DNA of 64,000 bases from the NCBI RefSeq assembly GCF_006345805.1, contig NC_043008.1:27280001-27344000 (forward strand), written 5' to 3'. Under the pieces are notes generated by a model. That model was not told where the DNA came from. It worked only from the letters and a program-made list of their open reading frames with translations, and did not search any database. Shown piece by piece: positions 3,786 through 60,789 of this stretch. The position numbers were made by a program, and so were the translations under genes. Position 1 is the first letter of the stretch. Each line of letters begins with the position of its first letter. The stretch comes from Octopus sinensis (Eukaryota).

Positions 3786-4236
3786 TCTCAATAATACTAA
3801 GACATTAGAAGATGTTTGTTTGCATCTGAAATAACTACGAAATTGTATATTTTATCTTTGTTCATTTGCATATATATATTGATACTTACTTAAGTCAGTA
3901 CAGTACGAATTTTTGTGATATTTGGATCTCTATTTATTAATAAAAAAGTTTGAACACAATGTGTGTTTATAATTTCTTAACGAAAACTAAAGCATGGCTT
4001 CCGTCATTCGAGCACACATACAGAATACACGCACATATAATGAATGTCATGGCGTGTGAATCAACACGAACCACGTACGCTATCTGTGACTTATACACAC
4101 TGTCTTAGCTCTCACTCTATCACTCTCTAAGTCTTGCTCAAGAACGCAACACGCATCCCGGTCAGGTCCAGGGTTCTAACTCACAACATCACGGTCGTAA
4201 GCTCGACGCTCTAACCACTGAGCCATGCGCCTTCAC

Positions 4237-4279
<43 letters not shown>

Positions 4280-4973: not shown

Positions 4974-5022
<49 letters not shown>

Positions 5023-5109
5023 AAGGGTGAAAAGGAACACACGAGTTGATATATATGAAAAAACAAGTAAAAAATAGAAAATGCTAAAATAATTTTATAG
5101 TGAACATTT

Positions 5110-5147
5110 CAGTACCGGTTTCGGTCATTTTGAGACCTTTTCAACTG
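5110..5147 (-). ncRNA. Minimal type I hammerhead ribozyme (U3-A8 variant)
   Basis: Minus strand reads CAG-UUGAAAA-GGUC-ucaaaau-GACC-GAAA-CCGG-UA/CUG: stem I CAG/CUG, stem II GGUC/GACC, palindromic ACCGGU stem III, GUA cleavage triplet. Confidence 0.85.
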
Positions 5148-5498
5148 TAACGATTAAATAATTAAATTTAGAAAAATTAGAAGAAAAGTTTTTTTAAAAG
5201 AATATTTCTATAGTAGTGTTCAGATTTAAGTGGCATTCTGCCTTCCTCTGACTCCCTTGTTTGCACTTGTGTGTTCGAGGTAGTTGTGAGTTCTTGGTAG
5301 GGTAGTAGAGGGAAGGCTGGTGAGGAAAGGGGGGTGGGAGAATCTGGGAGTGCCCTGATGGTCGTATTTTGAATGGTCAGTGGCGGCTGGCAGTCTCAGT
5401 TCAATTCAGGAGAATATTTATATTGACAGGCTTGTTTATAGAATTAGCGTAGGTGTTATACTAAAAAACATTAGTGACAAACTTAAGGGGTAGGGGGT

Positions 5499-5760
5499 GG
5501 AGAAGAAGAAGAAGAAGAAGAAGAAGAAGAAGAAGAAGAAGGAGAAGGAGAAGATGACGATGATGGTGATGGTGGTGATGATTATGACGACGATGATGAT
5601 GATAACGATGATGATGAAGAAGAAGAAGAAGAAGAAGAAGAAGGAGGAGAAGGAGAAGATGGTGGTGATGATGGTGGCGATGATGATGATGCCGATGATG
5701 ATGATAACGATGATGATGAAGAAGAAGAGGAAGAAGAAAAAGAAGACAAAAAAAAACAGA
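5499..5760. repeat. Compound (GAA)n/(GAT)n tract in the PLE 3' UTR (also ~9916-10188 and ~14346-14615)
   Basis: Directly visible. Two internal subunits, and length varies among the three copies. Confidence 0.95.
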
Positions 5761-5883
5761 GAAGGGAGAATATGAATGGGTGTAAATATAGCTATGAAGG
5801 GGCTGATTAGTAATGGATTCTATGGAGTGTAGTATTTGTGTGTGTATATATATTTTTTTCTTTTATTCTAAAGTTGAGGTATA

Positions 5884-8237
5884 TTAATTGTTTGTCGTAG
5901 ACCCGTTAAGGAGTGGCTTGTATTTTGTAATAAAGAGATTTTCTTTACTTATTCGTTGTCTCGAGGTTGTATCGTCCCTAAATTGGTAGAGGGGGAAAAT
6001 TCTGAAGTTTGGTGTTTTTTTGTTGGCGCAAGTATCTATGTGTTGGCTAAAAGCTATTTTTCTGTTTTGGGGAATTTTTATCTGGGATCTGTGCAGGGCC
6101 ATTCGTTTACGCAAACCATTTTTTGTTTGGCCTATGTACTGCTCTTGACACCCGGAGCAGGTTAGTGAGTATATTAGGTTCTCCGAAGCACATGTGAAGT
6201 TGCTGTTCACTGTAAAACGTTGTCCCTGTTTGAAGGAGAACTCAGAACCCTCGATTAGATAGTCGCATATCCCGCAATTGGGTCTTCCACATTTTTTTAC
6301 TGTCGGCTTCTGTGTTGAAGAGTGAATTCGGGCTTGTGTAAGGAGACTTTTCATGGATCTAGGCTGTCTTTTGCTTTTTATGATCGTGTGTGTTTGGAGG
6401 ATTGTGTTCATTCTGTGGTCTTTTTTTAGGAGGGGTATGTTGTGGAGGATGGTGTCGAAGGCTTCGTTATTGAGAGGGTTGTGTGTGGAGATGTATGGTA
6501 ACGCTTTTGGTTGTAAGTTTTTCTTTGATTTGGGATGTCTCAGTTCCTTGATGTTAAGTTGAAGGGCACGTTGAATGCATTTGTCAATAAGTGAAGGTGG
6601 ATAGTTCCTGGTGATTAGGGTATCTTTTAGTTCTTGTAGTCGTGTGTCTCTGGTGTTTGCGTTAGAGACTATAGTGCATATCCTTTTTGCTAGATTGAAG
6701 GGGATATTCATCCTGGTGTGTCTGGGGTGGCATGAATTGAATGGAAGATATTGCTTAGAGTCTGTAGGCTTATAGTATATGTCTGTTTCTATTATATTAT
6801 TAGCTTTCTTAATGAGGATATCGAGGAAGGGGAGTTGTTGTTGGCTATATTCCATCGTGAATTGGATGTTTACGTCCAGTCCGTTTAAAATTTTCTGGAA
6901 TTCTATGAGTTTTTCTATATTTTTATGCCAAAGGATGAAACAGTCATCTAGATATCTCTTCCAGTTGTTTTCTATGTAGATGGAGAAAGGGCTGCCATAT
7001 CTTTCTAGAACCTTACGATACAGACTGATCTCTAGGTATCCTATGACTAGGTTGGCAAAGGAGGGGGCCATTCGTGTACCCATCGCAGTCCCCGATTTTT
7101 GTCGGTAGAAGTTGTCATTGAAGGCGAAGAATTTATTTTCCAGGATGAATTTAACCCCTTCTATCACAAATTCTTTTTTGATGCGGTGTGGTAGTTCGTT
7201 GGCGTGATTCTCTAGCCAGAATTGGATTGCATCTAGTCCTAGGTTGTGGGGGATATTGGAGTAGAGGTTGACTACATCGAAGGATACCAGTATGGTGTTT
7301 TTGTTTATAGTATTCGGTAGGTGATTGAGCATATCTAAGTCGTCCCTTATATAGCTTTTGACATGTTTGAGGAGTGGTTTTAACAGGGTGTCTAAAAAGT
7401 TACTGAGGTGGTGGGTTTCGCATGCGGGACCTGCTATTATGGGTCTCAATTTGAGGTCATTAGGATTAGGGACTTTAATTATTTTGTCTGTAGCTATCTT
7501 GCATGCGTTGCTTATTTTTTCACTTTTGTGGATCTTAGGTATACCGTAGAATTGGCTAGTTTTACTTGTGAAATTGGTCATATAATCATATTCTTTGTCG
7601 GTTAGCCCTGCTTTGTATGGGTTTAATATGGATTTTAGTTCCCTCATTATTTTTTGTTCACTGTAGTTTTGTGCCTTTTCATAGTATGTTGTGTCTTCCA
7701 GCATAGAAAGTACCAAAGTTATGTAAAATGTCGTATCCATTAAGACAACAGCACTCCCTTTATCGGCCTCTTTGATTGTTATTGTTTTATCTAGTTTTAA
7801 TTTGTTCAACTCAGCCCATTCTTTTTTGCTGAAGTTTGGTTTGTGTTTTTGTTTGTGCATATGTTGATATGGGTAATTTGATATGTGGTCACAGAAATCA
7901 TCAAGTGTTTTATTCTTACCTTTCGAGGGGTGTAGTTACTCCTATTTCTGGCTAACGATTCGTCCTCGTTGTATTTATCGTATAGCTCCTCAGTAAGTCT
8001 TAATTTTCTGCAGAATTCTGCGATGTCTTCTTTCATTTCATTGTAGTTGGGGTGTTGTGGGGTGGGTGTAAACTTGAGTCCTTTGGAAAGTATGTTTATT
8101 TGGTTTGCTGTTAGTTCCTTGTGAGTTAGATTAATAATTTTTATTACTTTTGGTTCCTCCTGCTTGTTTGGTGCTATCTTGTGTCTCTGTGTTTGCGTAT
8201 TGGGTCTAAAAAATGAATGCGGTGGTTGGGACGGTAG
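5884..8237 (-). CDS. PLE RT + GIY-YIG (ORF2, copy 1, 1-nt deletion near 7926)
   Basis: Protein identical to copy 2 over 658 aa. The frame breaks at a G4 run that is G5 in copy 2. Confidence 0.92.
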
Positions 8238-9408
8238 CTAGTATATAGTTGTTCTTTGTTGATTAGGGGTCTCCTGTTGTGATTTATGGTGTGTGTTCTT
8301 GGAGCAGTATTGAGGAGAGCATCCCGATATCCCATATTCGGGTGTGGTGTTCTAGGAGGCCTTCGTTGGTAATCATTGCAAGTGGTGTGGGTTTGTTGTG
8401 CATGGTTGTTTAACCGGTTAATGGGACGAAGATTTCGTTGGTAACTCCTTTGGGTGGGGATGAGGTTGCAGTGTCTATGCTGTGGGTGTTGATTTATCCT
8501 TTCTCTGCTTGAAGTGGGGGTATTCCTGATATTGTATCGCTGGCTGCTTACAGAGTTAGGGTTAGGTCCTGTATTCTTTTTTTGATAGTAGTGAAGGTTC
8601 CGATTTTTAGACAGGTGTGTATCGGTGTTTGGGTGTTGTTTTGGTTTTCTTATTTTCTGGAAAGGGTTGTTGGAGGCGTGCTCTGTTTGAAAGACGGCTT
8701 CATAGTCTGAGAACCAAGTGGCGCTTTTCTCCCAGCGTTGGAGAGATTTTAGTTCTTCTTTTTCACAGTCCTCTTTCCATAGTTTGGAGAACTTCTCTTG
8801 ATCTGGGCCTTGGGTCATTTTGCGAATTTCTTCGTTGATATCTTCATCGGTGGATTTTATTTTATCCTCATTCGTTTGGGCCCTCAATTTCAGAAGTTCT
8901 ATTTCCATTTTCATTTTTTCCAGTGCCATTCTCTCCCTGAGGTGTCTTTGTGTTTCAGGTTCTTCTGTAATAGCTTTGAACTGGAATTTACGTGGAGGAT
9001 TAACGGGGTCCGGTTGAGCCATTTTTCGTATATATCCGCTTTGTTGTTGTTTTGGATCATCTTCCAAAAGGCGAACTTTCTATCTCTGAGTGATTTGTTC
9101 CATTGTGGTATTATGTGGTGTTTCATTTGGTATGTTGTTAGAGTATTGATCCCATATATTGACTCGTTTGGAGGTCCTTTGTTAGCGTTGTTAGAGAAAA
9201 ATGTTCTAATTGTTTCGCATAAGTTTCCAAGGTTTTCGACAATTTCGGAGGTTGTATTTTTCGTATCTGTTTCTTCATTGTTCTCTCGATTGGGTTGAAG
9301 TGTCGAGTCGAATTTGTTCAAAAAAGTTGACAAATTTGTGTTGATTTTCTTGAGTTCTTTCAGTATTTCTTCGTTTATGGAGGTGATTGTGTCTGTTTTT
9401 GTCGGCAT
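8174..9408 (-). CDS. PLE ORF1 (copy 1, 1-nt deletion near 8994)
   Basis: Same ORF, broken at cgtggagg (copy 2 has cgtgggagg). The two-copy consensus is 411 aa. Confidence 0.8.
8207..8213 (-). promoter_or_regulatory. Candidate -1 frameshift slippery heptamer (copy 1)
   Basis: Same T6A motif in the same phase. Confidence 0.6.
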
Positions 9409-9528
9409 TTTCTGTATCTCGTGTGGGTTAATGATATGTATAAGGGTGAAAAGGAACACACGAGTTGATATATATGAAAAAACAAGTAAAAAATAGAAAA
9501 TGCTAAAATAATTTTATAGTGAACATTT

Positions 9529-9566
9529 CAGTACCGGTTTCGGTCATTTTGAGACCTTTTCAACTG
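9529..9566 (-). ncRNA. Minimal type I hammerhead ribozyme (copy 2)
   Basis: Identical 38-nt motif. Confidence 0.85.
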
Positions 9567-10310
9567 TAACGATTAAATAATTAAATTTAGAAAAATTAGA
9601 AGAAAAGTTTTTTTAAAAGAATATTTCTATAGTAGTGTTCAGATTTAAGTGGCATTCTGCCTTTCTCTGACTCCCTTGTTTGCACTTGTGTGTTCGAGGT
9701 AGTTGTGAGTTCTTGGTAGGGTAGTAGAGGGAAGGCTGGTGAGGAAAGGGGGGTGGGAGAATCTGGGAGTGCCCTGATGGTCGTATTTTGAATGGTCAGT
9801 GGCGGCTGGCAGTCTCAGTTCAATTCAGGAGAATATTTATTGACAGGCTTGTTTATAGAATTAGCGTAGGTGTTATACTAAAAAACATTAGTGACAAACT
9901 TAAGGGGTAGGGGGTGGAGAAGAAGAAGAAGAAGAAGAAGAAGAAGAAGGAGAAGGAGAGGAGAAGATGACGATGATGGTGATGGTGGTGATGATGGTGG
10001 CGATGATGATGATGCCGATGATGATGATAACGATGATGATGAAGAAGAAGAAGAAGAGAAGAAGAGAAGAAGAAGGAGAAGGAGAAGATGGTGGTGATGA
10101 TGGTGGCGATGATGATGATGCCGATGATGATGATAACGATGATGATGAAGAAGAAGAGAAGAAGAAAAAGAAGACAAAAAAAAACAGAGAAGGGAGAATA
10201 TGAATGGGTGTAAATATAGCTATGAAGGGGCTGATTAGTAATGGATTCTATGGAGTGTAGTATTGTGTGTGTATATATATTTTTTTCTTTTATTCTAAAG
10301 TTGAGGTATA

Positions 10311-12665
10311 TTAATTGTTTGTCGTAGACCCGTTAAGGAGTGGCTTGTATTTTGTAATAAAGAGATTTTCTTTACTTATTCGTTGTCTCGAGGTTGTATC
10401 GTCCCTAAATTGGTAGAGGGGGAAAATTCTGAAGTTTGGTGTTTTTTTGTTGGCGCAAGTATCTATGTGTTGGCTAAAAGCTATTTTTCTGTTTTGGGGA
10501 ATTTTTATCTGGGATCTGTGCAGGGCCATTCGTTTACGCAAACCATTTTTTGTTTGGCCTATGTACTGCTCTTGACACCCGGAGCAGGTTAGTGAGTATA
10601 TTAGGTTCTCCGAAGCACATGTGAAGTTGCTGTTCACTGTAAAACGTTGTCCCTGTTTGAAGGAGAACTCAGAACCCTCGATTAGATAGTCGCATATCCC
10701 GCAATTGGGTCTTCCACATTTTTTTACTGTCGGCTTCTGTGTTGAAGAGTGAATTCGGGCTTGTGTAAGGAGACTTTTCATGGATCTAGGCTGTCTTTTG
10801 CTTTTTATGATCGTGTGTGTTTGGAGGATTGTGTTCATTCTGTGGTCTTTTTTTAGGAGGGGTATGTTGTGGAGGATGGTGTCGAAGGCTTCGTTATTGA
10901 GAGGGTTGTGTGTGGAGATGTATGGTAACGCTTTTGGTTGTAAGTTTTTCTTTGATTTGGGATGTCTCAGTTCCTTGATGTTAAGTTGAAGGGCACGTTG
11001 AATGCATTTGTCAATAAGTGAAGGTGGATAGTTCCTGGTGATTAGGGTATCTTTTAGTTCTTGTAGTCGTGTGTCTCTGGTGTTTGCGTTAGAGACTATA
11101 GTGCATATCCTTTTTGCTAGATTGAAGGGGATATTCATCCTGGTGTGTCTGGGGTGGCATGAATTGAATGGAAGATATTGCTTAGAGTCTGTAGGCTTAT
11201 AGTATATGTCTGTTTCTATTATATTATTAGCTTTCTTAATGAGGATATCGAGGAAGGGGAGTTGTTGTTGGCTATATTCCATCGTGAATTGGATGTTTAC
11301 GTCCAGTCCGTTTAAAATTTTCTGGAATTCTATGAGTTTTTCTATATTTTTATGCCAAAGGATGAAACAGTCATCTAGATATCTCTTCCAGTTGTTTTCT
11401 ATGTAGATGGAGAAAGGGCTGCCATATCTTTCTAGAACCTTACGATACAGACTGATCTCTAGGTATCCTATGACTAGGTTGGCAAAGGAGGGGGCCATTC
11501 GTGTACCCATCGCAGTCCCCGATTTTTGTCGGTAGAAGTTGTCATTGAAGGCGAAGAATTTATTTTCCAGGATGAATTTAACCCCTTCTATCACAAATTC
11601 TTTTTTGATGCGGTGTGGTAGTTCGTTGGCGTGATTCTCTAGCCAGAATTGGATTGCATCTAGTCCTAGGTTGTGGGGGATATTGGAGTAGAGGTTGACT
11701 ACATCGAAGGATACCAGTATGGTGTTTTTGTTTATAGTATTCGGTAGGTGATTGAGCATATCTAAGTCGTCCCTTATATAGCTTTTGACATGTTTGAGGA
11801 GTGGTTTTAACAGGGTGTCTAAAAAGTTACTGAGGTGGTGGGTTTCGCATGCGGGACCTGCTATTATGGGTCTCAATTTGAGGTCATTAGGATTAGGGAC
11901 TTTAATTATTTTGTCTGTAGCTATCTTGCATGCGTTGCTTATTTTTTCACTTTTGTGGATCTTAGGTATACCGTAGAATTGGCTAGTTTTACTTGTGAAA
12001 TTGGTCATATAATCATATTCTTTGTCGGTTAGCCCTGCTTTGTATGGGTTTAATATGGATTTTAGTTCCCTCATTATTTTTTGTTCACTGTAGTTTTGTG
12101 CCTTTTCATAGTATGTTGTGTCTTCCAGCATAGAAAGTACCAAAGTTATGTAAAATGTCGTATCCATTAAGACAACAGCACTCCCTTTATCGGCCTCTTT
12201 GATTGTTATTGTTTTATCTAGTTTTAATTTGTTCAACTCAGCCCATTCTTTTTTGCTGAAGTTTGGTTTGTGTTTTTGTTTGTGCATATGTTGATATGGG
12301 TAATTTGATATGTGGTCACAGAAATCATCAAGTGTTTTATTCTTACCTTTCGAGGGGGTGTAGTTACTCCTATTTCTGGCTAACGATTCGTCCTCGTTGT
12401 ATTTATCGTATAGCTCCTCAGTAAGTCTTAATTTTCTGCAGAATTCTGCGATGTCTTCTTTCATTTCATTGTAGTTGGGGTGTTGTGGGGTGGGTGTAAA
12501 CTTGAGTCCTTTGGAAAGTATGTTTATTTGGTTTGCTGTTAGTTCCTTGTGAGTTAGATTAATAATTTTTATTACTTTTGGTTCCTCCTGCTTGTTTGGT
12601 GCTATCTTGTGTCTCTGTGTTTGCGTATTGGGTCTAAAAAATGAATGCGGTGGTTGGGACGGTAG
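10311..12665 (-). CDS. PLE reverse transcriptase + GIY-YIG endonuclease (ORF2, copy 2, uninterrupted)
   Basis: Open frame from 12665 to the stop at 10311 (784 codons), first ATG at 12464. Motifs IINLT..LSKGLKFTP (upstream of the ATG), ADKG, FYGIPKIHK, LRPII, SFDVVNLYSNIP, GTAMG, RYLDD, LPFLD, linker CxxxxCxxC, IYSLTCSGC..YIGQT, R..H, E..FI. Confidence 0.95.
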   Translation of the reverse strand, partial: LPSQPPHSFFRPNTQTQRHKIAPNKQEEPKVIKIINLTHKELTANQINILSKGLKFTPTPQHPNYNEMKEDIAEFCRKLRLTEELYDKYNEDESLARNRSNYTPSKGKNKTLDDFCDHISNYPYQHMHKQKHKPNFSKKEWAELNKLKLDKTITIKEADKGSAVVLMDTTFYITLVLSMLEDTTYYEKAQNYSEQKIMRELKSILNPYKAGLTDKEYDYMTNFTSKTSQFYGIPKIHKSEKISNACKIATDKIIKVPNPNDLKLRPIIAGPACETHHLSNFLDTLLKPLLKHVKSYIRDDLDMLNHLPNTINKNTILVSFDVVNLYSNIPHNLGLDAIQFWLENHANELPHRIKKEFVIEGVKFILENKFFAFNDNFYRQKSGTAMGTRMAPSFANLVIGYLEISLYRKVLERYGSPFSIYIENNWKRYLDDCFILWHKNIEKLIEFQKILNGLDVNIQFTMEYSQQQLPFLDILIKKANNIIETDIYYKPTDSKQYLPFNSCHPRHTRMNIPFNLAKRICTIVSNANTRDTRLQELKDTLITRNYPPSLIDKCIQRALQLNIKELRHPKSKKNLQPKALPYISTHNPLNNEAFDTILHNIPLLKKDHRMNTILQTHTIIKSKRQPRSMKSLLTQARIHSSTQKPTVKKCGRPNCGICDYLIEGSEFSFKQGQRFTVNSNFTCASENLIYSLTCSGCQEQYIGQTKNGLRKRMALHRSQIKIPQNRKIAFSQHIDTCANKKTPNFRIFPLYQFRDDTTSRQRISKENLFITKYKPLLNGSTTNN

Positions 12666-13836
12666 CTAGTATATAGTTGTTCTTTGTTGATTAGGGGTCT
12701 CCTGTTGTGATTTATGGTGTGTGTTCTTGGAGCAGTATTGAGGAGAGCATCCCGATATCCCATATTCGGGTGTGGTGTTCTAGGAGGCCTTCGTTGGTAA
12801 TCATTGCAAGTGGTGTGGGTTTGTTGTGCATGGTTGTTTAACCGGTTAATGGGACGAAGATTTCGTTGGTAACTCCTTTGGGTGGGGATGAGGTTGCAGT
12901 GTCTATGCTGTGGGTGTTGATTTATCCTTTCTCTGCTTGAAGTGGGGGTATTCCTGATATTGTATCGCTGGCTGCTTACAGAGTTAGGGTTAGGTCCTGT
13001 ATTCTTTTTTTGATAGTAGTGAAGGTTCCGATTTTTAGACAGGTGTGTATCGGTGTTTGGGTGTTGTTTTGGTTTTCTTATTTTCTGGAAAGGGTTGTTG
13101 GAGGCGTGCTCTGTTTGAAAGACGGCTTCATAGTCTGAGAACCAAGTGGCGCTTTTCTCCCAGCGTTGGAGAGATTTTAGTTCTTCTTTTTCACAGTCCT
13201 CTTTCCATAGTTTGGAGAACTTCTCTTGATCTGGGCCTTGGGTCATTTTGCGAATTTCTTCGTTGATATCTTCATCGGTGGATTTTATTTTATCCTCATT
13301 CGTTTGGGCCCTCAATTTCAGAAGTTCTATTTCCATTTTCATTTTTTCCAGTGCCATTCTCTCCCTGAGGTGTCTTTGTGTTTCAGGTTCTTCTGTAATA
13401 GCTTTGAACTGGAATTTACGTGGGAGGATTAACGGGGTCCGGTTGAGCCATTTTTCGTATATATCCGCTTTGTTGTTGTTTTGGATCATCTTCCAAAAGG
13501 CGAACTTTCTATCTCTGAGTGATTTGTTCCATTGTGGTATTATGTGGTGTTTCATTTGGTATGTTGTTAGAGTATTGATCCCATATATTGACTCGTTTGG
13601 AGGTCCTTGTTAGCGTTGTTAGAGAAAAATGTTCTAATTGTTTCGCATAAGTTTCCAAGGTTTTCGACAATTTCGGAGGTTGTATTTTTCGTATCTGTTT
13701 CTTCATTGTTCTCTCGATTGGGTTGAAGTGTCGAGTCGAATTTGTTCAAAAAAGTTGACAAATTTGTGTTGATTTTCTTGAGTTCTTTCAGTATTTCTTC
13801 GTTTATGGAGGTGATTGTGTCTGTTTTTGTCGGCAT
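12602..13836 (-). CDS. PLE ORF1, coiled-coil/low-complexity protein (copy 2, 1-nt deletion near 13608)
   Basis: Begins MPTKTD at ATG 13836. Joins the 317-aa ORF if the T missing relative to copy 1 (ggtccttg vs ggtcctttg) is restored. Helical charged middle (ERMALEKMKMEIELLKLRAQ) and an N/R/H/P-rich tail. Confidence 0.8.
12635..12641 (-). promoter_or_regulatory. Candidate -1 frameshift slippery heptamer U-UUU-UUA (copy 2)
   Basis: CAT TTT TTA GAC in the ORF1 frame, inside the ORF1/ORF2 overlap. ORF2 is in the -1 frame. Confidence 0.6.
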
Positions 13837-13956
13837 TTTCTGTATCTCGTGTGGGTTAATGATATGTATAAGGGTGAAAAGGAACACACGAGTTGATATA
13901 TATGAAAAAACAAGTAAAAAATAGAAAATGCTAAAATAATTTTATAGTGAACATTT

Positions 13957-13994
13957 CAGTACCGGTTTCGGTCATTTTGAGACCTTTTCAACTG
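13957..13994 (-). ncRNA. Minimal type I hammerhead ribozyme (copy 3)
   Basis: Identical 38-nt motif. Confidence 0.85.
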
Positions 13995-14738
13995 TAACGA
14001 TTAAATAATTAAATTTAGAAAAATTAGAAGAAAAGTTTTTTTAAAAGAATATTTCTATAGTAGTGTTCAGATTTAAGTGGCATTCTGCCTTTCTCTGACT
14101 CCCTTGTTTGCACTTGTGTGTTCGAGGTAGTTGTGAGTTCTTGGTAGGGTAGTAGAGGGAAGGCTGGTGAGGAAAGGGGGGTGGGAGAATCTGGGAGTGC
14201 CCTGATGGTCGTATTTTGAATGGTCAGTGGCGGCTGGCAGTCTCAGTTCAATTCAGGAGAATATTTATATTGACAGGCTTGTTTATAGAATTAGCGTAGG
14301 TGTTATACTAAAAAACATTAGTGACAAACTTAAGGGGTAGGGGGTGGAGAAGAAGAAGAAGAAGAAGAAGAAGAAGAAGGAGAAGGAGAAGGAGAAGATG
14401 ACGATGATGGTGATGGTGGTGATGATGGTGGCGATGATGATGATGCCGATGATGATGATAACGATGATGATGAAGAAGAAGAAGAAGAAGAAGAAGAAGG
14501 AGGAGAAGGAGAAGATGGTGGTGATGATGGTGGCGATGATGATGATGCCGATGATGATGATAACGATGATGATGAAGAAGAAGAGGAAGAAGAAAAAGAA
14601 GACAAAAAAAAACAGAGAAGGGAGAATATGAATGGGTGTAAATATAGCTATGAAGGGGCTGATTAGTAATGGATTCTATGGAGTGTAGTATTGTGTGTGT
14701 ATATATATTTTTTTCTTTTATTCTAAAGTTGAGGTATA

Positions 14739-15011
14739 TTAATTGTTTGTCGTAGACCCGTTAAGGAGTGGCTTGTATTTTGTAATAAAGAGATTTTCTT
14801 TACTTATTCGTTGTCTCGAGGTTGTATCGTCCCTAAATTGGTAGAGGGGGAAAATTCTGAAGTTTGGTGTTTTTTTGTTGGCGCAAGTATCTATGTGTTG
14901 GCTAAAAGCTATTTTTCTGTTTTGGGGAATTTTTATCTGGGATCTGTGCAGAGCCATTCGTTTACGCAAACCATTTTTTGTTTGGCCTATGTACTGCTCT
15001 TGACACCCGGA

Positions 15012-15014
<3 letters not shown>
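14739..15014 (-). pseudogene. 3' portion of GIY-YIG endonuclease within the upstream pseudo-LTR
   Basis: Matches the ORF2 C-terminus, with one synonymous difference seen at ~14952. Confidence 0.9.
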
Positions 15015-15060: not shown

Positions 15061-15372
15061 CAGAGAGCCATCTCGATCACGAATGATTATGATATTTCAC
15101 CTAGAAGTTCGGGCAAGGCTGTTTATGGAACACCAGCAGTCGCCCATGCATACCAGCCTACCACACCACCAATGTCATTCAAGAGAAAGGCAAATGCCAA
15201 TACAGTTTGGCACCAGTGACGTTGCAACTCCTTTCTGCAGCTGAGTGAACTGGAGCAACGTGAAATAAAGTCTTGCTCAAGAACACAACACTCATACCGG
15301 TTAGGTCCAGGGTTCGAACTCACATCATGGTCGTAAGCTCGACGCTCTAACCACTGAGCCATGCGCCTTCAC
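15061..15372 (-). mobile_element. tRNA-derived SINE
   Basis: A box TGGCTCAGTGG, B box GTTCGAACC, core TTCTTGAGCAAGAC. Confidence 0.8.
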
Positions 15373-15395
15373 TATATATATATATATATATATAT

Positions 15396-15967
15396 ACACC
15401 CAGGTCTACTCCCCATTTTCCTTTTAGGAGTGAGTATCCATAACAAGACACATACCAGGCATTTCATTCATCCCCTAGATTCATATTCTATGCTCGGGTC
15501 AAGGCATAGTATGCAATCCCTAGTACCAGCAGCGGGGCTCGACAGCATATGCTGGTTTAACCTCGACACATCATGATGGTTCCGTACCCCTTTGAGCATC
15601 AACAAAATTCACTTATCCGTCCACAGAAAGCGAGGTCTGTCTCTGGTTCTGCTGCCTACCGCTTCAGCCTTAATCCCCCTCTTTACCATCCGCTCCTCAT
15701 CCATCTTTTCCATGAGGCCAAACCATGTTAACGTCCGTCTATCTAATTTGTTTGTTAGTTCTTCTCTCATTACTGCTCATCTACGAACTTCCTCACTCCT
15801 CATACTGTCCATCTATGTCACACGAACCATAGCCCTCAGACATCTCATCTCAAATATAGTCAGTTGACTCCTTTCCGCGCCTCTCAGCCCCCACGTCTCT
15901 GCGCCATATAACATTGTCGGCACAATAACACTCTCATACACACCTCTTTTCGTTGGGGCACTACCGT
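15396..15967 (-). mobile_element. RTE-type LINE 3' fragment
   Basis: VYESVIVPTMLYGAETW..FEMRCLR, then WFG..E.M and R..GRPR.RF.D. Confidence 0.8.
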
Positions 15968-15969
15968 TG

Positions 15970-16013
<44 letters not shown>

Positions 16014-45031: not shown

Positions 45032-45255
45032 CTTCTTCTTCTTCTTCTGCTTCTTCTTCTTCTGGAACGTTCTGTTGAATGTTGATATTTTCGCATCTTT
45101 TTTCTGGATTTACGCTAGATTGTAAGTCCAAAAGTCATTACAATCTAGCGTAAATCCATGTGGGTTAAAGTCCTGATATTGCAAACATCCAGAAAAAAGA
45201 TGCGAAAATATCAACATTCAACAGAACGTTCCAGAAGAAGAAGAAGAAGAAGAAG
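45032..45255. repeat. Nested perfect inverted repeats
   Basis: 60-bp arms 45050-45109 / 45187-45246 and an inner 21-bp stem 45105-45125 / 45138-45158. Confidence 0.95.
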
Positions 45256-46539
45256 ACTTGCTTCGCTATGAAACGTGGTGAGTTACCTTAAATTTCCTCT
45301 CATACTACTCTGGTTGTTTGTTTAAAATCACGAAAACTTGCATGGCAAGTTTTATAATGATATAATCTGTGAATTGATCAAATGCCGTTGCAACAGCTGC
45401 TGTGAATTTTAAACCCCATTTGCGTTGTTTTATACGTGTGCTACACTGTGAACTATCCCTAGGCTGGATTTACTGTTTGTATTCAATAAGATACTGTAAA
45501 TATACATTTTCCTATGTGTGCTTATATACGGATAGACGTAGCCATATACTTCTGAATATATTAAGTATTTGCATTGCCAGATGAAATCTTTGAATTTAAG
45601 AGCCGAAAAAGAATATTTCATATATAATATTTCAACTCTAAATCTGAATGACACCATCGTCATGCAAGACCTTCAGCTGACCAACATTAGTAGGAATGTG
45701 CTAATGTTGTAGTGTTTATCTTGGTCTCTTGGTAAGAAAACAATTTCCAAGAAGTTCCTTTCCGGGCCTCATAAAGTATTTCGGTTATCTTTTGTACACG
45801 TGATTCATGACTAGACATTGACGCTTTGCAGTTAACAGATAATGTCAGAGGGAAGGACGTGAAGTACAATTTAAAACCTATATTACAGTATCTAAAACAT
45901 CTATCTACTTAAATTACTTGTAGGTAGGAGAGTTCTATATTACAACGGATATCGAAAATGTTAGCACGGATTTAGAGATTTCTGGGTATAAAATTGATAG
46001 CCATTAACTAAAATTATGATAACAGTACATGACATGGACATCATAAACGAAGCGAAGCAAAATGTTGTTGCTGTTGCTGCTGCCATAACAACTGCTATTA
46101 CCACTGCCTCTACTACTGCTGATAGTGATATTGCTGCTGCTACCACAACTGCTGCTGCTGATGATGATGATGAATATTAGTGGTTGAAAATAAACATATA
46201 AAATAAACGTAGGCAAAAGAATGAAAAATCTAATAATAAGTTAACATTACTTGAAAAGGTAGTGGGTAGCGAACTTCTTCACTACTTCAGGAAGTGACGA
46301 CCCTACCTGACACGAGTTCCGGGTTCAGCTGGCTCCGGCTGACAGTACCCGGTATGGGCCCCTATCCAGGGTTACGGAAAGGAGACAACCTTCAAAGATA
46401 TCCGGAGTGGAGCCCCGAAGGCGGTCTAGTGTTCGTCTCGACACGCTTCCGGCAGCTCCTGCAACCAAGCTGGTGCCAAACGTAATGCACTGCACTCCAC
46501 TGGACTACATCAGCAAGGTCGAGAGAGGAAACCTGACGA

Positions 46540-47748
46540 TTGGGCTACCCAGGACTGCGGTTGGCAAGCTGGAATGTCAGGACCATGTGTCCTGGAATAT
46601 CTGATGATCTTCTCAGGATTGAAGACACAAGGAAAACGGCCATCATTGACCGTGAACTAAAGAGGCTCAACATAGATATTGCTAGGCTGCAGGAGACAAA
46701 ACTTCCCTCAAACGGCAAACTCAAAGAGCAGGATTTCACCTTCTTTTGGCAGGGAAGCGATCCAGAAGAACCTCGTCAACATGGCGTTGGCTTTGCAGTG
46801 AGAAACTCACTACTCTCCTTAATAGAACCACCATCAGGAGGCACTGATCGTATCCTCTCACTGCGCCTCTCGACTTCTTCTGGCTCAGTACATCTACTCA
46901 GCATCTATGCTCCCACTCTCTGCAGCTCAGAGGAGACCAAGGACCAGTTCTACAAAGATCTCAACTGTGTCATAGAAAATATACCAACGACTGAAAATAT
47001 CTACCTTCTAGGGGATTTTAACGCTCGCGTGGGATCTGACCATGATTCGTGGCCCATTTGTGTTGGACACTTTGGTATTGGCAACATGAATGACAATGGT
47101 CAGAGACTACTCGAATTCTGCACATACCACAACCTGTGCATCACAAACACATTCTTTACCAACAAGCCATCCCACAAGGCATCCTGGAGACATCCAAGAT
47201 CTCACCACTGGCACCAGCTGGATCTCATCATTACACGGATATCCTTTCTGAATTCTACTCTATTGACCCGCAGTTACCACAGCGCGGATTGTGACACAGA
47301 CCACTCACTAATTAGAAGTAGGGTGAGGATTCTGCCTAAAAGAGTCCATCGCTCCAAGAAAATGGGCCGACCACGCATCAACACCGCCAGAACCTCGGAC
47401 CCTACACTGCGAAAATATTTTGCTGCTTCTATCAGGGTTACCCTCAGTAGCTGCCCAACCTCCTCTGCTGAAAATAGGTGGGACTATATCAGGGAAGCCT
47501 TGTATACGACATCAATAGATACTTTCGGCATGAGAGAAAGGCAAAACTCAGATTGGTTCAATGCTGGGCTCTCAGAGCTGGAGCCAGTTATCGAAGCAAA
47601 GCGTGCAGCTCTGATGCAATACAAGAGTGACTCTCCTACAAAGTCACTCGAAGAACTCAGAAAGGCAGGAAATAAAACCCAACTGACAGCCAGACGCTGT
47701 GCAAATAGGTATTGGCAGAAAATCTGTCAGTATCCAGTCAGCTGCTGA
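46540..47748 (+). CDS. RTE apurinic-like endonuclease region
   Basis: 402-aa ORF with complete APE motifs. Confidence 0.88.
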   Translation: MGYPGLRLASWNVRTMCPGISDDLLRIEDTRKTAIIDRELKRLNIDIARLQETKLPSNGKLKEQDFTFFWQGSDPEEPRQHGVGFAVRNSLLSLIEPPSGGTDRILSLRLSTSSGSVHLLSIYAPTLCSSEETKDQFYKDLNCVIENIPTTENIYLLGDFNARVGSDHDSWPICVGHFGIGNMNDNGQRLLEFCTYHNLCITNTFFTNKPSHKASWRHPRSHHWHQLDLIITRISFLNSTLLTRSYHSADCDTDHSLIRSRVRILPKRVHRSKKMGRPRINTARTSDPTLRKYFAASIRVTLSSCPTSSAENRWDYIREALYTTSIDTFGMRERQNSDWFNAGLSELEPVIEAKRAALMQYKSDSPTKSLEELRKAGNKTQLTARRCANRYWQKICQYPVSC

Positions 47749-49675
47749 CAGGGGCGACACCCGTGGGATGTATGCCGGTTTGAAGAAGGCCCTAGGTCCA
47801 TCCGCAACCAAGTCAGCCCCTCTGAAATCAACTACTGGGGATCTCATCAGGGATCAAGGCAAGCAAATGGATAGATGGGTGGAGCACTACCAGGATCTCT
47901 ACTCACGGGAGACTACAGTGGCTGAGGTTGCAGTCGAAAGTGTCAAGATCTTGCCAGTCATGTGCGAACTTGACAGTCCGCCATCTATAGCAGAGCTCAC
48001 CAAGGCTGTTGACTCCCTAGTAAGAAATAAGGCCCCGGGAAAAGATGGCATCCCCTCAGAGATCATCAAAGCCGGCAAAAACACCATCCTGCTTCGGCAC
48101 CTTCATGAGTTTCTGTGTCAGTGCTGGGAAGAGGGTACAGTCCCTCAGGATATGCGGGATGCTAACATCATTACGCTTTACAAAAACAAAGGTGACCGTG
48201 GTGATTGTAACAATTACCGTGGTATATCCCTTCTAAACACTGTTGGAAAGACCTTTGCCCGCGTTTTCCTGGCCAGGCTACAACTACTTGCTTCTCGAAT
48301 CTATCCGGAATCCCAGTGTGGCTTTAGAAGAAGCAGATCAACTATCGATATGATATTCTCCATACGCCAACTTCAGGAGAAGTCCAGAGAGCAGAAAATG
48401 CTATTATATATGGCCTTCATTGATCTAACAAAGGCTTTTGACTCGGTAAGCAGAACAGGCCGCTTCATCCTGCTCCAAAAAATCGGATGTCCACCAAAGC
48501 TGCTGAGGATCATCAAGTCTTTCCATGATGACATGCAAGGCACCATACAGCACAACGGTTCAACATCAGCCACCTTCCAAATAAAAAACGGGGTAAAGCA
48601 AGGTTGTGTCCTCGCTCCTACATTGTTTGGCATCTTCTCGCTGTTACTGTCACATGCCTTTCAGACATCAGATGATGGAGTGTTTCTGCACAGTAGAAGT
48701 GACGGGAAACTGTTCAATCTCTCGCGCCTACGTGCCAAGACCAAAATCAGAAACGTCCTCATTAAAGAGATGTTATTTGCTGATGATGCCGCTCTGGTAA
48801 CACACACAGAAGAAGCCCTCCAAAGGCTCATTAACTGTTTTGAGCAAGCATGTAACGACTTTGGCTTAGCTATCAGCCTTAAAAAGACCAACATCATGGG
48901 CCAGGCTACATCGGACATCCCAAACATACATATTGGAGACCACAGATTACAAGAGGTGGAGAGGTTTACCTATCTGGACTCTACCGTCACCTACAATCTA
49001 TCCCTTGACGCTGAGCTCAATATACGCATTGGCAAGGCAGCTGCTGCGATGGCCCAACTCTCCAAACGGGCTTGGGACAACAATAAGCTGACCAAGACCA
49101 CGAACATAAAGATATACCAGGCATGTGTACTCACCACTCTACTGTATGGAAGTGAGACCTGGACGCTATACACACGCCAAGAGCGTCGCCTAAACCTCTT
49201 TCACCTGCGCTGCCTCCGAAAAATCCTCCGCATCAAATGGCAGAATTATATCCCCAACAAAGATGTCCTCAGGCAAGCAGGAATACCAAGCACGTTTGCT
49301 CTCCTCACACAAAGACGTATGAGATGGCTTGGGAATGTTAGCCGTATGAAAGATGGCAGAATCCCCAAGGACATACTCTACGGAGAGCTTGCTAGGGATA
49401 CTAGGTCTGTGGGTAGACCGATCTTACGTTACAAGGATGTTTGCAAAAGGGACATGAAGGCCTGCAACATCAATATTAGCGGTTGGGAGGCAGTTGCCGG
49501 CAACCGTGGAGAATGGCGACGTACCGTAAAAGAGGGAATACAAAGGAGTGACAGAGAGAGGAGAAATGGAAAGAAAAGAAGAGACGTCAACATGAAACTA
49601 TGGCATTACAACCAGCCAGGAACAGTCTTCGCTACATTTGCGGTACCTGCCAGAGGGAGTGTTTATCCAGGATAG
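47699..49675 (+). CDS. RTE reverse transcriptase region
   Basis: 658-aa ORF with the RT motifs. The last ~35 aa are out of frame. Confidence 0.9.
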   Translation: MQIGIGRKSVSIQSAADRGDTRGMYAGLKKALGPSATKSAPLKSTTGDLIRDQGKQMDRWVEHYQDLYSRETTVAEVAVESVKILPVMCELDSPPSIAELTKAVDSLVRNKAPGKDGIPSEIIKAGKNTILLRHLHEFLCQCWEEGTVPQDMRDANIITLYKNKGDRGDCNNYRGISLLNTVGKTFARVFLARLQLLASRIYPESQCGFRRSRSTIDMIFSIRQLQEKSREQKMLLYMAFIDLTKAFDSVSRTGRFILLQKIGCPPKLLRIIKSFHDDMQGTIQHNGSTSATFQIKNGVKQGCVLAPTLFGIFSLLLSHAFQTSDDGVFLHSRSDGKLFNLSRLRAKTKIRNVLIKEMLFADDAALVTHTEEALQRLINCFEQACNDFGLAISLKKTNIMGQATSDIPNIHIGDHRLQEVERFTYLDSTVTYNLSLDAELNIRIGKAAAAMAQLSKRAWDNNKLTKTTNIKIYQACVLTTLLYGSETWTLYTRQERRLNLFHLRCLRKILRIKWQNYIPNKDVLRQAGIPSTFALLTQRRMRWLGNVSRMKDGRIPKDILYGELARDTRSVGRPILRYKDVCKRDMKACNINISGWEAVAGNRGEWRRTVKEGIQRSDRERRNGKKRRDVNMKLWHYNQPGTVFATFAVPARGSVYPG

Positions 49676-56720: not shown

Positions 56721-59700
56721 AATAGTTATGCCCGGAAACATGTCTACCAAAAGAAATAGAGGTGAATTTCGATCTGTCAGTCTCATGCGAGTTCGATATG
56801 ACCAATATATTAATTCGGAGAATTCAGAAGCGGTGTCTTGTCAAAAGGTTGACCCTGTACAAACAGTCCCTTCTTCTAACGTCACCGTCACAGAAGCGGC
56901 GTCTTGCCAAAAAGTTGACTCTGAAAAAATGGACCCCTCTGATGTCGCCGTCAATCATTTAATGAAAACAAGCCAAAAATCATGCCGGATCGGTCATCGC
57001 CCGGGACAACAAGGATCGCGTTACCCAGTAGGGAACCAGACTGGGGTCGAAAAGTTTGCTGCTGGAACAAACTCTCAAAAAGACGATCTACCAGGTGACC
57101 AGAACCAGAATACTTCTAACTCTGGACATGTAGTGACACCACCAAAAACGCCACCTAAAGCAAAACGTATAAAATGGACCAGAGAGGACTATAGAGATGT
57201 GTTGAAAGCTTTTTATACAGCCCAACTAAACCCAAACAATAACCTCAGTGTACAAACATACATCTCATGGAGAAATTCAGTAGGCAATGACGTACGTAGA
57301 TATATAGACGCAAATAAATTAAGTAATGTACGCAGAGATATAATAAAAAATAAAAGACTAACTGACGCTGAAATTGACCAAATTAGGACACTAATAGCTC
57401 ATGGTAGACCAAAAGAAAACAACAACAATGTAGACGAAATAGGTAACAGTAGCACAGAAGCCAGTGTACAAGCGGTAAATCAACTTCCCAATGGGGAAGT
57501 TAAACAAAGAATAGCGAAGAAGAGAGATTTGAAAAAAGAGGAGAACGTAGACCTTCCTCAAGAAAACCAAAATAGATATGACATAGAATTTGAGGTGAAT
57601 AATAGAGAAAAGATTATGGAAGCAAAAGTGGACATTATGAGAGAACTCGGCAAGATTGAGATCACTGACATGGTTAATAGAGAACCGCTACCAAAGTTTT
57701 CAAATGGCACAAGGAATAACAACACAATCATGACATATAACGTTGCCCTTGGACAGATCTTAAGAAATAAGGGGAATGATCTGACAACCTTAAATAATTT
57801 CATCTATTCCACTGCTAAAGTAGTAACTACCCAACTAGGTATTAAGATGACAAAGAAAAAGGGCAGGCATGTCAATGAACCTCCTAAGTGGAAAGTAGCG
57901 ATACAAAAAGAGATTGAATCTCTGCGGGCGGATGTTTCAGTTCTCGATGAGCTTGCTAGAGGAGTGAATATTAAGTCGAGAAAAGCTAGAAAAATCAAGC
58001 AAAAATATAAAATAAAAAATCTCATAAACCTCCTTGCAACTAAGGAACAGTTCAAACAACGGATACAGTTGAAAGTCCAACGGCTTAGAAGGTATGACAA
58101 AAGAAACAAATTTTATCGACAAAATAAATTTTTTAAGACAGATACAAAGACATTTTATAGGGAAATTGGCAAACATAAAATACACGTAGAAAATCCACCT
58201 AAGATTGAGGAAGTGGAGGAGTTGTGGAAGAAGGTATGGAGCAACGAAAAAGAGTTTAATGCTGAGACTGACTGGATAGAAAGTGAGAAAGAAAGACTGG
58301 ATGAACTTGAAGAACAGAAATGGGAAGCAATAGGAATAGAGGAGCTAAGGTGTGTCCTTAGGAAGGCTCATAAATGGAAAACCCTAAGACTGGATCGGAT
58401 CCCTAACTTCTGGCTGAATTGTTTGACAGAAGTACACGAAAATCTCGCTACATCTCTGTCTGATGTCATTCAGAACCCAGAGCAAATACTTGCTTGGCTG
58501 ACTGAAGGAACCACCTACCTATTACCTAAAACCGAAGACACAAAAATCCCAAATAATTACCGGCCAATAACATGTCTCAACACCACCTACAAAATCCTCA
58601 CATCCATAATAACGGAGAGAATGTACGCTTTCCTGAACAAAACTCTATCCTTCCGCAAGCTCAAAAAGGTTGTAAAAGAAACTCTTATGGGTGCAAAGAC
58701 CAATTGCTCATAAACAGAATGATTGTAGAAAATTGCCGGAGCAAAAACAAAAATCTGAGTATAGCATGAATAGACTACAGGAAAGCGTTTGACAGTGTCC
58801 CACATAAATGGATACTAAAGGCCCTTTGAGATATACAAGATCTCTCCTGTCGTCTCAAAATTCTTACAGAATAGCATGACCATGTGGAACACACGTCTCT
58901 TTCTAAGCCATAGTAATGGGATGAGCCAGTCCAACCGCATCAACATCAAACGAGGCATCTTTCAAGGTGACTCCCTCTCTCCATTACTTTTTTGCATGGC
59001 ACTGATCCCACTCTCAAACGAATTGGATAATACCAGATATGGGTACAAAGTTTTTAGTAAGTCAATAAACCACCTTTTCTATATGGACAACCTAAAGCTG
59101 TTTGCCAGGAATGACCAAGAGCTAGAAGAGCTGCTAACAACTGTTAAAGAGGTTAGCAATGATATTGGAATGGACTTTGGCCTTGATAAGTGTGCTAAAG
59201 CTACTTTTGTAAGAAGCAAGCTCAGGCAAACAGCTTCTGTTAAATTAGATATTGACACTACCATCAAGGAACTTGACCCACAAAAAAGTTACAAATACCT
59301 AGGAATCAACGAAGGAGATGGTATACATCATGCTACTATGAAGGAAAAAATAAGAAAGGAATACTATAGGAGTATAAAGCTTGTACTGAAGACTGAACTC
59401 AACTTCAAGAATTGCATTGAGGCCATTAACACCCTGGCACTTCCAGTAGTCCAGTACAGTTTTAACATCATTAACTGGAACCTTACGGTACTCCAACGCT
59501 TGGACAGGAAGACAAGAAAATTACTGACATCCAAGAACATGCACCACCCTAAGGCAGATGTAGACCGCTTGTACCTACCTAGAAGCAGCGGGGGAAGAGG
59601 AATGATGCAATTAGAGCTGTGCTATAAGACCTCCACTGTAGGAATGAACAAGTACCTATCTAGTACAAAGGACTGGATGCTGCGACTTGTGTGCGAACAC

Positions 59701-60789
59701 GAAAGCAGCAAAAAGCTGCATTCTATTGTCAAGGAAGATTATAAGTTCGAAAGGGAACTAGACATTAACCTTGAATCAGATGAAGAGCCGGAAACCACTG
59801 CTACCAAGCAAGCAAAGCAAATCAAGCAGACTTCAAAAAAGAACGGGAAGAATCAAATTGAGAGGCGGTGGAGCCAGAAGCCCCTGCATGGACAATATAT
59901 TCTCCGAAGCCAAAATGCTGATGTAGACCAAGCAACGACCCATCAGTGGCTGAAGAGTTCAGGATTGAAAGCAGAGACTGAAGGCTTCATATTGGCAGCA
60001 CAAGATCAAAGCTTGTTTACCAAAAATTACCAGGCTAACGTTCTCCGAAACGGTACTGACCCTAAATGCAGATTCTGCGACACATTTGACGAAAAAATAG
60101 ACCATCTCGTTTCGGGATGTCCTGTGCTGACACCTAACCAATGCAAAAATCGCCACGATAGGGTAGGACAGTATATACACTGGAAGATATGTAAACAATA
60201 CAAATTCGGCACTCTTTCTAACTGGTATGAACACCATCCTCAGCCAGTTGTTGAAGGTAAAAATGTCACCATCCTGTGGGATTTTCCAGTCAACACCGAC
60301 AGAATGAACAAGGCTAATCGACCAGACATAGTTGTTAAAGACAGGGAAGAAAATACCTGCAGACTAATAGAGGTGAGCGTCCCCACTGATAAAAATATAT
60401 CTGTAAAGGAATTTGACAAACTTAGTAAATGTAAGGACCTGGAAATCGAAATACAAAAGATGTGGAATCTTAAAGCAAAAACTGTTCCTGTTATTGTAGG
60501 TGCCCTAGGTATGATAAAAAAGGGATGTCAGAAACACCTAGACAATATCCCTGGAGAACCATGTCTCAAGGAAATCCAAAAGATTGTGCTAACAAGTACT
60601 GCCCACATCCTTAGAAAAACCACATCAATGTAAATGGTTGTGTTGTATTACATGGAGATATTCCTCTACTTCCCCTCCCCAAGCTTTCAGCTATATTTCA
60701 ATAACTCTTAACCTTCACTTGCCCTAGGGCGCTGGGTGTGCCCCGGCAAGTGATTGCATCAAACATGCAGATTAAAAGTAAATGACAAT

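Follow-up and report, generated by a model that had tools for sequence, protein, structure and literature searches.

At the gag-pol junction of HIV-1, the slippery site U_UUU_UUA and a downstream stem-loop serve an arrangement in which a structural protein is followed by an enzyme. Among Penelope-like elements (PLEs), the Athena/Terminon elements, treated by Arkhipova and colleagues in 2017, reportedly join a helical ORF1 to the reverse transcriptase (RT) by a frameshift whose signal includes a pseudoknot. Here we describe a PLE on the minus strand of a 64,000-nucleotide (nt) stretch of the Octopus sinensis genome (contig NC_043008.1, positions 27,280,001 to 27,344,000; hereafter the window, in whose numbering all coordinates are given). 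It is an endonuclease-bearing (EN+) retrotransposon of the Neptune/Nematis type, these two clades not being told apart by a tree, and its ORF1 and RT-endonuclease lie in overlapping frames that are very probably joined through programmed -1 ribosomal frameshifting at U_UUU_UUA, yielding an ORF1-RT-EN fusion protein.

An earlier reading of this DNA from its letters alone (the sequence-only reading) had proposed such a frameshift and regarded EN+ PLEs as classically single-ORF. The latter view agrees with the abstract of Craig et al. 2021 (PMC8557442) on canonical EN+ elements, but less well with the legend of Fig. 1 of the same paper, according to which a frameshift with a pseudoknot can set ORF1 apart (the clade is not named in the text), or with a two-ORF Neptune of Fundulus, in the available passages on which a frameshift is unmentioned (PMC12602865). 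Neptune-like elements with esterases have also been described (PMC5408684). All families examined here have two overlapping frames and not the one ORF that canonical EN+ elements have. With regard to stimulators of frameshifting, a ribosome stalled at a stop codon stimulates the -1 shift of the trailing ribosome in Escherichia coli reporters ca. 2-fold, with a peak at a 9-codon spacer (PMC6815119), and in SARS-CoV-2 a 0-frame stop lies five codons past the slip site, where its position matters and is proposed to let the pseudoknot refold (PMC8168617). The literature searched (Repbase, subscription papers and figures lay outside its scope, and the Athena/Terminon papers may describe a heptamer) yielded no slippery site in Penelope elements, and its titles and passages no natural stop-codon-stimulated -1 frameshift. 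A term search of the PMC8557442 supplement brought up no mention of this junction in the places shown, and the same holds for the accessible parts of PMC3846280, PMC6431247, PMC7544508 and bioRxiv 2026.07.22.740005.

A slippery heptamer where ORF1 and RT overlap

Re-read from the sequence, ORF1 of copy 2, one of two full units in the window, ends CAT TTT TTA GAC ... AGA TAG on the minus strand (stop at 12604-12602), and the RT lies in the -1 frame, which is closed by a TAG at 12668-12666 and opens at 12665. The heptamer TTTTTTA stands within the overlap (12641-12635) and occurs a second time in copy 1 (8213-8207). As the sequence-only reading had pointed out, the conserved KIINL...KFTPTP block of the RT (12569-12483) is located upstream of the first ATG (12464). 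The length of 411 amino acids (aa) that it gave for ORF1 proves correct for the family, being found in the continuous genomic copies L020 and L051; neither ORF1 in the window is itself continuous, since 1-nt indels are found at other places in both copies (at 13608 in copy 2; at 9180, 8995 and 7930 in copy 1). Its estimate of a ~1175-aa fusion likewise matches the predicted product (401 + 774 = 1175 aa). The chance level of such sites is low: in-phase X_XXY_YYZ was seen at 30 of 5121 ORF1-body codons, and U6N at five.

Conservation of the junction

Eleven families (A-K, with the window copies in A) were gathered from this genome with diverged protein queries, at ca. 50-75% identity in the RT N-terminus. 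A correctly phased heptamer with the RT in -1 is present in every one of them, as U_UUU_UUA in ten and as U_UUU_UUU in family I, where T7A is seen at 25 of 30 loci. The older family D (38 loci) comprises 21 loci with T6, five with T5, nine substituted or off-anchor matches and three without the anchor, and in one family search 14 of 130 loci had no ORF1/RT pair. Two candidate variants, C_UUU_UUA in family D and U_UUU_UUG in family K, were rejected as single-copy changes, U6A being present in most copies. The RT frame is closed 12-123 nt 5' of the heptamer in the family representatives, and families A, B, E, F and H, like six loci from outside this genome (L171-L174, L176 and L177), lack an AUG ahead of the conserved RT block. 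Within family I, L183 and its relatives are young and have CAG six bases past U_UUU_UUU, giving the same RT phase as the candidate TAG acceptor discussed below.

The sample from outside this genome consists of ten metagenome loci and one contaminant contig, at 25-43% RT identity, and eight of the eleven have a correctly phased slippery heptamer: U6A in L171-L173 and L177, U_UUU_UUG followed by T in L174, L176 and L276, and A_AAA_AAC in L175, where a hairpin is found 7 nt later (dG -23.5, z -2.4). An RT-frame stop lies directly 5' of the heptamer in L171, L172 and L174, which pins the shift to that spot, and one codon before it in L276. ORF1 homology was confirmed for L171-L174, L177 and L276, and not for L175 and L176. 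Slippery heptamers being swapped at one place fits the prediction of a frameshift and not that of a splice acceptor, and the conservation check proposed in the sequence-only reading came out in its favor, with heptamer and phase kept across families at about 30-75% RT identity while heptamer types are exchanged. Viral contigs were searched as well and yielded no relatives. L171-L173 make up a distant clade with RGG-rich ORF1 tails, a stop 1-3 codons past U6A and no fold, and two lineage members (P0158 and L276) come from metagenome-assembled genomes of bacteria, in which they most likely represent contamination from a host.

The T run itself is sound. Among the 30 best-matching, near-identical genomic copies (those ranking highest of 40 scored, chosen for their likeness to the query and thus biased towards it), 29 have T6, one has a T>C change and none has an indel there, single indels being many elsewhere. 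Contigs of six out of eight short-read runs, from five studies, bridge the site without an indel and with at least 31 nt on each side. On the strength of copies and contigs, an assembly error at this run is rejected. The sequence-only reading had itself raised two ways in which a frameshift might be needless, i.e., a T7 consensus and spliced transcripts; these 30 copies of the family are all without T7, and no spliced form is seen in the contigs of the eight runs.

The ORF1 protein family

A profile of the ORF1 core retrieved 919 proteins, the best 150 of which are all at most 553 aa long, so none of these is fused to an RT; a separate search for longer, fused forms found none, which is weak evidence by the nature of that search. 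The protein consists of an N-terminal helical part, a conserved core predicted as three long helices (pLDDT 87) and a long N/R/Q/H/P-rich tail, and gave no meaningful match in Pfam, the ESM Atlas or Foldseek/PDB (best E 0.93, generic helical bundles). Within the last 45 residues, F-L or F-F occurs in 81 of 99 long-tailed homologues (tails of at least 80 aa) vs 4 of 128 control windows. When core coverage, tail and motif were all required, 84 of 153 proteins remained, and in these M, W, K, E and Q never precede F-L (0/84 vs 18% background, p 5e-8), as expected if the preceding codon must end in U. Five homologues (P0016, P0031, P0035, P0052 and P0092) end in F-stop, which may point either to copies whose T run has been shortened or to a variant with a shifty stop.

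Folding and spacing to the ORF1 stop

Sixteen junctions were folded locally, pseudoknots and long-range pairs being outside the model, and no shared stimulatory stem-loop, of the kind that canonical -1 sites have 5-9 nt past the heptamer as a stem-loop or pseudoknot, was found. A strong hairpin is seen only at L175. The window's family gives dG of 0 to -2.9 kcal/mol with z of +0.7 to +1.1, in keeping with the lack of a hairpin conceded as a caveat in the sequence-only reading, and family D reaches a z of -3.0 at 45 nt, yet only -4.0 kcal/mol.

The distance from F-L to the ORF1 stop, on the other hand, is constrained on one side. In the 84 proteins it is 0-9 codons in none, 10 in 28 and 11-41 in 56, with a per-codon stop rate of 0.082 beyond position 10. 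The last F-L was taken in each protein, a choice that favors short distances and renders the gap at 0-9 conservative. Control dipeptides show no comparable gap, and the T-starting codons for Y, W and C are not depleted in positions 0-9 (52/840 vs 131/2520). The 10-aa spacers share 9% mutual identity, the cores 34% on average. At 50% identity, 15 of the 46 clusters include distance 10, which turns up on either side of the tree and also in all three further full-length homologues, these being close to one 10-codon clade. Proteins with later stops have P, G, D or W, a residue set picked after data inspection, at position 10 in 27 of 56 cases vs a 20% background (40% after sampling one per cluster), and a C directly follows the stop in four of the five 10-codon cases seen at the DNA level. 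Elsewhere the distance is 11 codons in family C, 20 in D, E, G and K (with TGG at position 10), 23 in I and J and 30 in B, and 15, 18 and 19 in L174, L175 and L276, respectively. A periodicity of 20/30 codons is visible but not claimed, as the RT motif K-I-I/V-I is another source of stops at 20 codons, and such stops are shared by clades.

A possible ribosome queue at the ORF1 stop

Based on the frames, the heptamer and its conservation, we consider that most ribosomes would read ten codons past the heptamer and stop, giving abundant 411-aa ORF1 protein, and that a minority would slip by -1 and produce the 1175-aa fusion. The ORF1 protein, with its predicted helical core and disordered basic tail, may by analogy have a role in RNA packaging. 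Provided that the frameshift takes place, its likeliest stimulator would be a ribosome pausing at the ORF1 stop one ribosome length downstream, to which we give about an even chance. Such a paused ribosome would hold the next one on the slippery codons, replacing an RNA fold, and with ten codons between them UUA would occupy the P site (30 nt) or the A site (33 nt) of the trailing ribosome. Disome footprints of 59-60 and 62-63 nt reported from mouse liver (PMC7397865) imply 30-33 nt between A sites, and the parts of that paper considered here also cite 30-nt phasing upstream of stops; the 9-codon spacer of PMC6815119 is read here as counted in the same way as our 10-codon spacing. Taken on its own, ribosome collision at the ORF1 stop as the trigger of the shift is a tentative proposal that falls somewhat short of an even chance. 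The same caution applies to the wider postulate of a widespread animal PLE lineage with a natural collision-programmed -1 frameshift, in which a stop or slow codon would sit exactly one ribosome length behind U_UUU_UUA and the stimulator would be the terminating ribosome instead of a bound protein or an RNA fold.

Several observations speak against these proposals. In this genome distance 10 is restricted to families A, F and H, with eight of eleven families elsewhere, and 56 of the 84 proteins stop at 11-41 codons and not at 10, while L171, L172 and L173, which are true ORF1 homologues, have their stop 1, 3 and 3 codons behind the heptamer. Distance 10 is also clustered on the tree (12 changes vs 23.7 when shuffled), hence p values overstate independence. 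F-L is absent from 18 of the 99 long-tailed proteins, which were left out of the spacing set, and several of these, with F-stop at their end, may represent exceptions or dead copies; the database proteins, moreover, are known as proteins alone, their DNA context being unseen. No such junction is seen in the degenerate loci L178-L180. Runs X13 and X10 do not bridge the T run under the 31-nt rule, contigs of X10 breaking at 12609-12638, and the short-read runs are only guessed to be RNA, with assembled contigs dropping rare forms. The stop-codon disome signal was not seen in the liver data of PMC7397865 itself, as far as its consulted parts go. Finally, a plain queue alone leaves unexplained why distances of 12-19 codons are tolerated but not those of 0-9. 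We speculate that both would follow if ribosomes paused at position 10 even where no stop is present.

Alternative explanations

A frameshift might well occur without any queue, through intrinsic slipperiness of U6A, long-range RNA pairing, or a bound protein or nascent peptide, with another cause for the 10-codon spacing, e.g., a linker of fixed length in the fusion protein, with residue 13 hydrophobic. We consider this nearly an even prospect. The many lineages at 12-41 codons and the one clade at 1-3 are in its favor, as are RT-frame residue 13, which is I, L or M in families A-H and K whether a stop is there or not, and the hairpin used by L175, bearing in mind that the folds examined are local. 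It fits less well that spacer length is kept but spacer sequence is not, and that P, G, D or W at position 10 in 27 of the 56 longer proteins hints at a pause in the same place. T-starting codons, furthermore, are not general at that position in the 56 (W in seven, Y in three, F in one), so a conserved hydrophobic residue is not clade-wide.

Explanations without a frameshift fare much worse. It is very unlikely that TTTTTTAG acts as a 3' splice acceptor through which an upstream exon becomes joined to the RT frame in a spliced RNA, even though introns occur in PLEs (PMC8557442, as far as covered), an AG follows the T run in ten of eleven families here and in four outside loci, and the next codon starts with G in 59 of 84 homologues (70%), as an acceptor AG would also give; the CAG of family I, 6 nt past the T run and in the same RT phase, likewise points towards splicing and away from a frameshift. 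Nevertheless, an AG is impossible there in at least 25 of the 84 homologues, L174, L176 and L276 read TTTTTTGT and L175 reads AAAAAAC, and nothing would hold a pyrimidine tract to T alone in a single codon phase. No donor-like site of the phase needed lies within 1.5 kb in family A, nor is any such site common to the families (simple 7-of-9 consensus score), and no joint into 12633 is listed in the contigs of the eight short-read runs. The caveat in the sequence-only reading that this AG is a plausible acceptor is therefore disfavored, as no joint is seen and the AG, common as it is after the T run, is not obligatory. Precedents for stop-start coupling exist among other retroelements and viruses and would allow separate synthesis of RT-EN by termination-reinitiation, or from a near-cognate start that overlaps with the stop of ORF1 (here AUAG), a route that we judge just as improbable as splicing. 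In its favor, families A-H and K have AUA, CUA, AUG, UUG or CUG at this position, AUG being the triplet of C, D, G and K. It would leave the phased heptamer, its swaps and an RT frame open from the heptamer in every family unexplained, the stop of family B falls within the conserved RT block, and among the 28 ten-codon proteins there are 5 in which the codon of the last residue is unable to provide the A of AUG or AUA. A variant with an AUG or near-cognate start at the W/stop codon was dropped, family H giving CUA and families I and J none. Least probable of all is transcriptional slippage adding a U in the T run, or a frame break due to assembly error or dead mutation: homopolymer indels do occur elsewhere in the assembly, and 5 of 38 older family D copies have T5, but T7 is absent from 30 of 30 family A copies and all short-read contigs examined, the break is common to all families and distant relatives, and polymerase slippage does not need one codon phase.

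Implications

In our view, this EN+ lineage of PLEs has a genuine frameshift junction that is deeply conserved. The idea in general is partly in print; the surprising part is the absent RNA stimulator together with the hard 10-codon spacing. Such a frameshift would explain the expression route of an enzyme without a usable start codon in a high-copy retrotransposon lineage, and would extend gag-pol-like expression to EN+ PLEs, in which single-ORF annotation loses ORF1 and truncates the RT. If collision is involved, RT output would rise with ribosome load and slow termination, and should the 10-codon rule indeed reflect collision, it would add a third type of -1 stimulator to RNA structure and trans-acting proteins, otherwise found in bacterial reporters only within the literature searched. 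With a cassette of ~40 nt, eukaryotic queue-programmed frameshifting is directly testable.

The element and its surroundings

The RT is of the PLE type (PF00078 above cut-off, DKG and YLDD motifs, GLKF N-terminal block), and the endonuclease has a CxxC ahead of YIG, i.e., two cysteines between GIY and YIG. The cut-off of PF01541 is passed by the relative L172. Between the two domains lies a CX2-5CxxC zinc finger, compared by eye with the Neptune rows shown in the PMC8557442 supplement. The candidate hammerhead motif is a weak match to Rfam HH9 (19.7 bits vs a gathering threshold of 52), with the core and three stems legible by eye, a reading that agrees with the U3-A8 variant in the passages used from PMC4209133; a regex scan for the motif in other families gave no match. 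Copies are dispersed on many large contigs, with the endonuclease in frame with the RT, and the junction stretch gave 789 first-look candidates in the 2.7-Gb genome. The 3' UTR of the element contains long (CTT)n/(CAT)n tracts that differ in length between tandem copies (9850-10250, 14280-14680 and 5440-5860). Coordinates of all features are given in Table 1.

Table 1 Features of the Penelope-like insertion in the window
Feature	Coordinates	Strand	Remarks
Whole insertion	5015..15014	-	5'-truncated partial copy and two 4.43-kb units; (TA)n tracts on both flanks
Pseudo-LTR	15014-13862	-	5'-truncated partial copy, 1153 nt; two full units come after
Candidate minimal hammerhead ribozyme motif, U3-A8 core	13941..14005; also 9513-9577 and 5094-5158	-	in pseudo-LTR
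ORF1	12602..13836	-	411 aa in continuous copies; 1-nt deletion near 13608 in copy 2
ORF1/RT-frame overlap	12602..12665	-	64 nt
Slippery heptamer U_UUU_UUA, copy 2	12635..12641	-	in ORF1 phase; conserved
ORF1 stop UAG, followed by C	12602..12604	-	10 codons past heptamer; candidate ribosome roadblock
Slippery heptamer, copy 1	8207..8213	-	copy 1 ORF1 stop at 8176-8174
RT-endonuclease frame	10311..12641	-	776 codons, counted from slip site
Conserved N-terminal RT block, KIINL...KGLKFTPTP	12483..12569	-	upstream of first ATG (12464)
RT core, PF00078	11316..11882	-	32.3 bits, E 1e-7, above cut-off; YLDD
CX4CX2C linker zinc finger	10692..10718	-	Neptune/Nematis type; as defined in the parts consulted of PMC8557442
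GIY-YIG endonuclease, PF01541	10341..10604	-	19.9 bits, E 9e-4, below the 22.6 cut-off

Other mobile sequences surround the insertion. Short tRNA-like SINE heads, 97% identical to each other, lie by the (TA)n tracts, one on each side (4186-4260 and 15322-15396), and a decayed C-terminal RT fragment, which we take to be RTE-like, adjoins the insertion (15640-15980, minus strand). Further away, on the plus strand, a LINE with an APE endonuclease and RT (PF03372, PF00078) spans 46537-49675; it is split near 47700-47745 by a 1-nt break of the frame that resembles an indel in a dead copy, and the stretch read there contains no slippery heptamer. A second non-LTR element (56722-60633, plus strand) has RT and zf-RVT together with a restriction-like motif at the C-terminus, the last recognized by eye; it runs over two frames, and there is a gap near 58713-58819. 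An inverted repeat at 45040-45256 has 81-nt arms, 93% complementary, and a 55-nt loop.

Comparison with known systems

The junction resembles HIV-1 gag-pol in its heptamer and in the logic of structural protein and enzyme, but lacks the stem-loop. Athena/Terminon elements, reportedly telomeric and with an RT without fused endonuclease, differ from the present one, in which the endonuclease is in the RT frame and copies are dispersed. With Neptune/Nematis, as far as these are covered by the consulted parts of PMC8557442, it shares an RT with C-terminal GIY-YIG, the CX2-5CxxC linker, partial tandems with a pseudo-LTR, the (TA)n target and a candidate hammerhead motif, whereas the separate ~400-aa ORF1 without a Pfam family sets it apart from the canonical EN+ elements of that paper, and pseudoknot pairing capacity, part of the frameshift in its figure legend, is not evident at this junction. 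An additional upstream ORF in an EN+ element is likewise found in the two-ORF Neptune of Fundulus and the esterase-bearing Neptune-like elements, to the extent described in the passages cited above, but in contrast to the latter, ORF1 here is predicted to be all-helical and has no esterase match. SARS-CoV-2 differs in that it has a fold and a stop only half as far from the slip site (PMC8168617, in part). A parallel to the spacing is seen in the E. coli collision reporters (Smith et al. 2019, PMC6815119, in the portions considered), where a heptad also lies one ribosome length before a stop and there is no RNA stimulator; those reporters are synthetic and bacterial, and the octopus junction, known here from its sequence, is part of a eukaryotic element that occurs naturally and whose 10-codon spacer is conserved.

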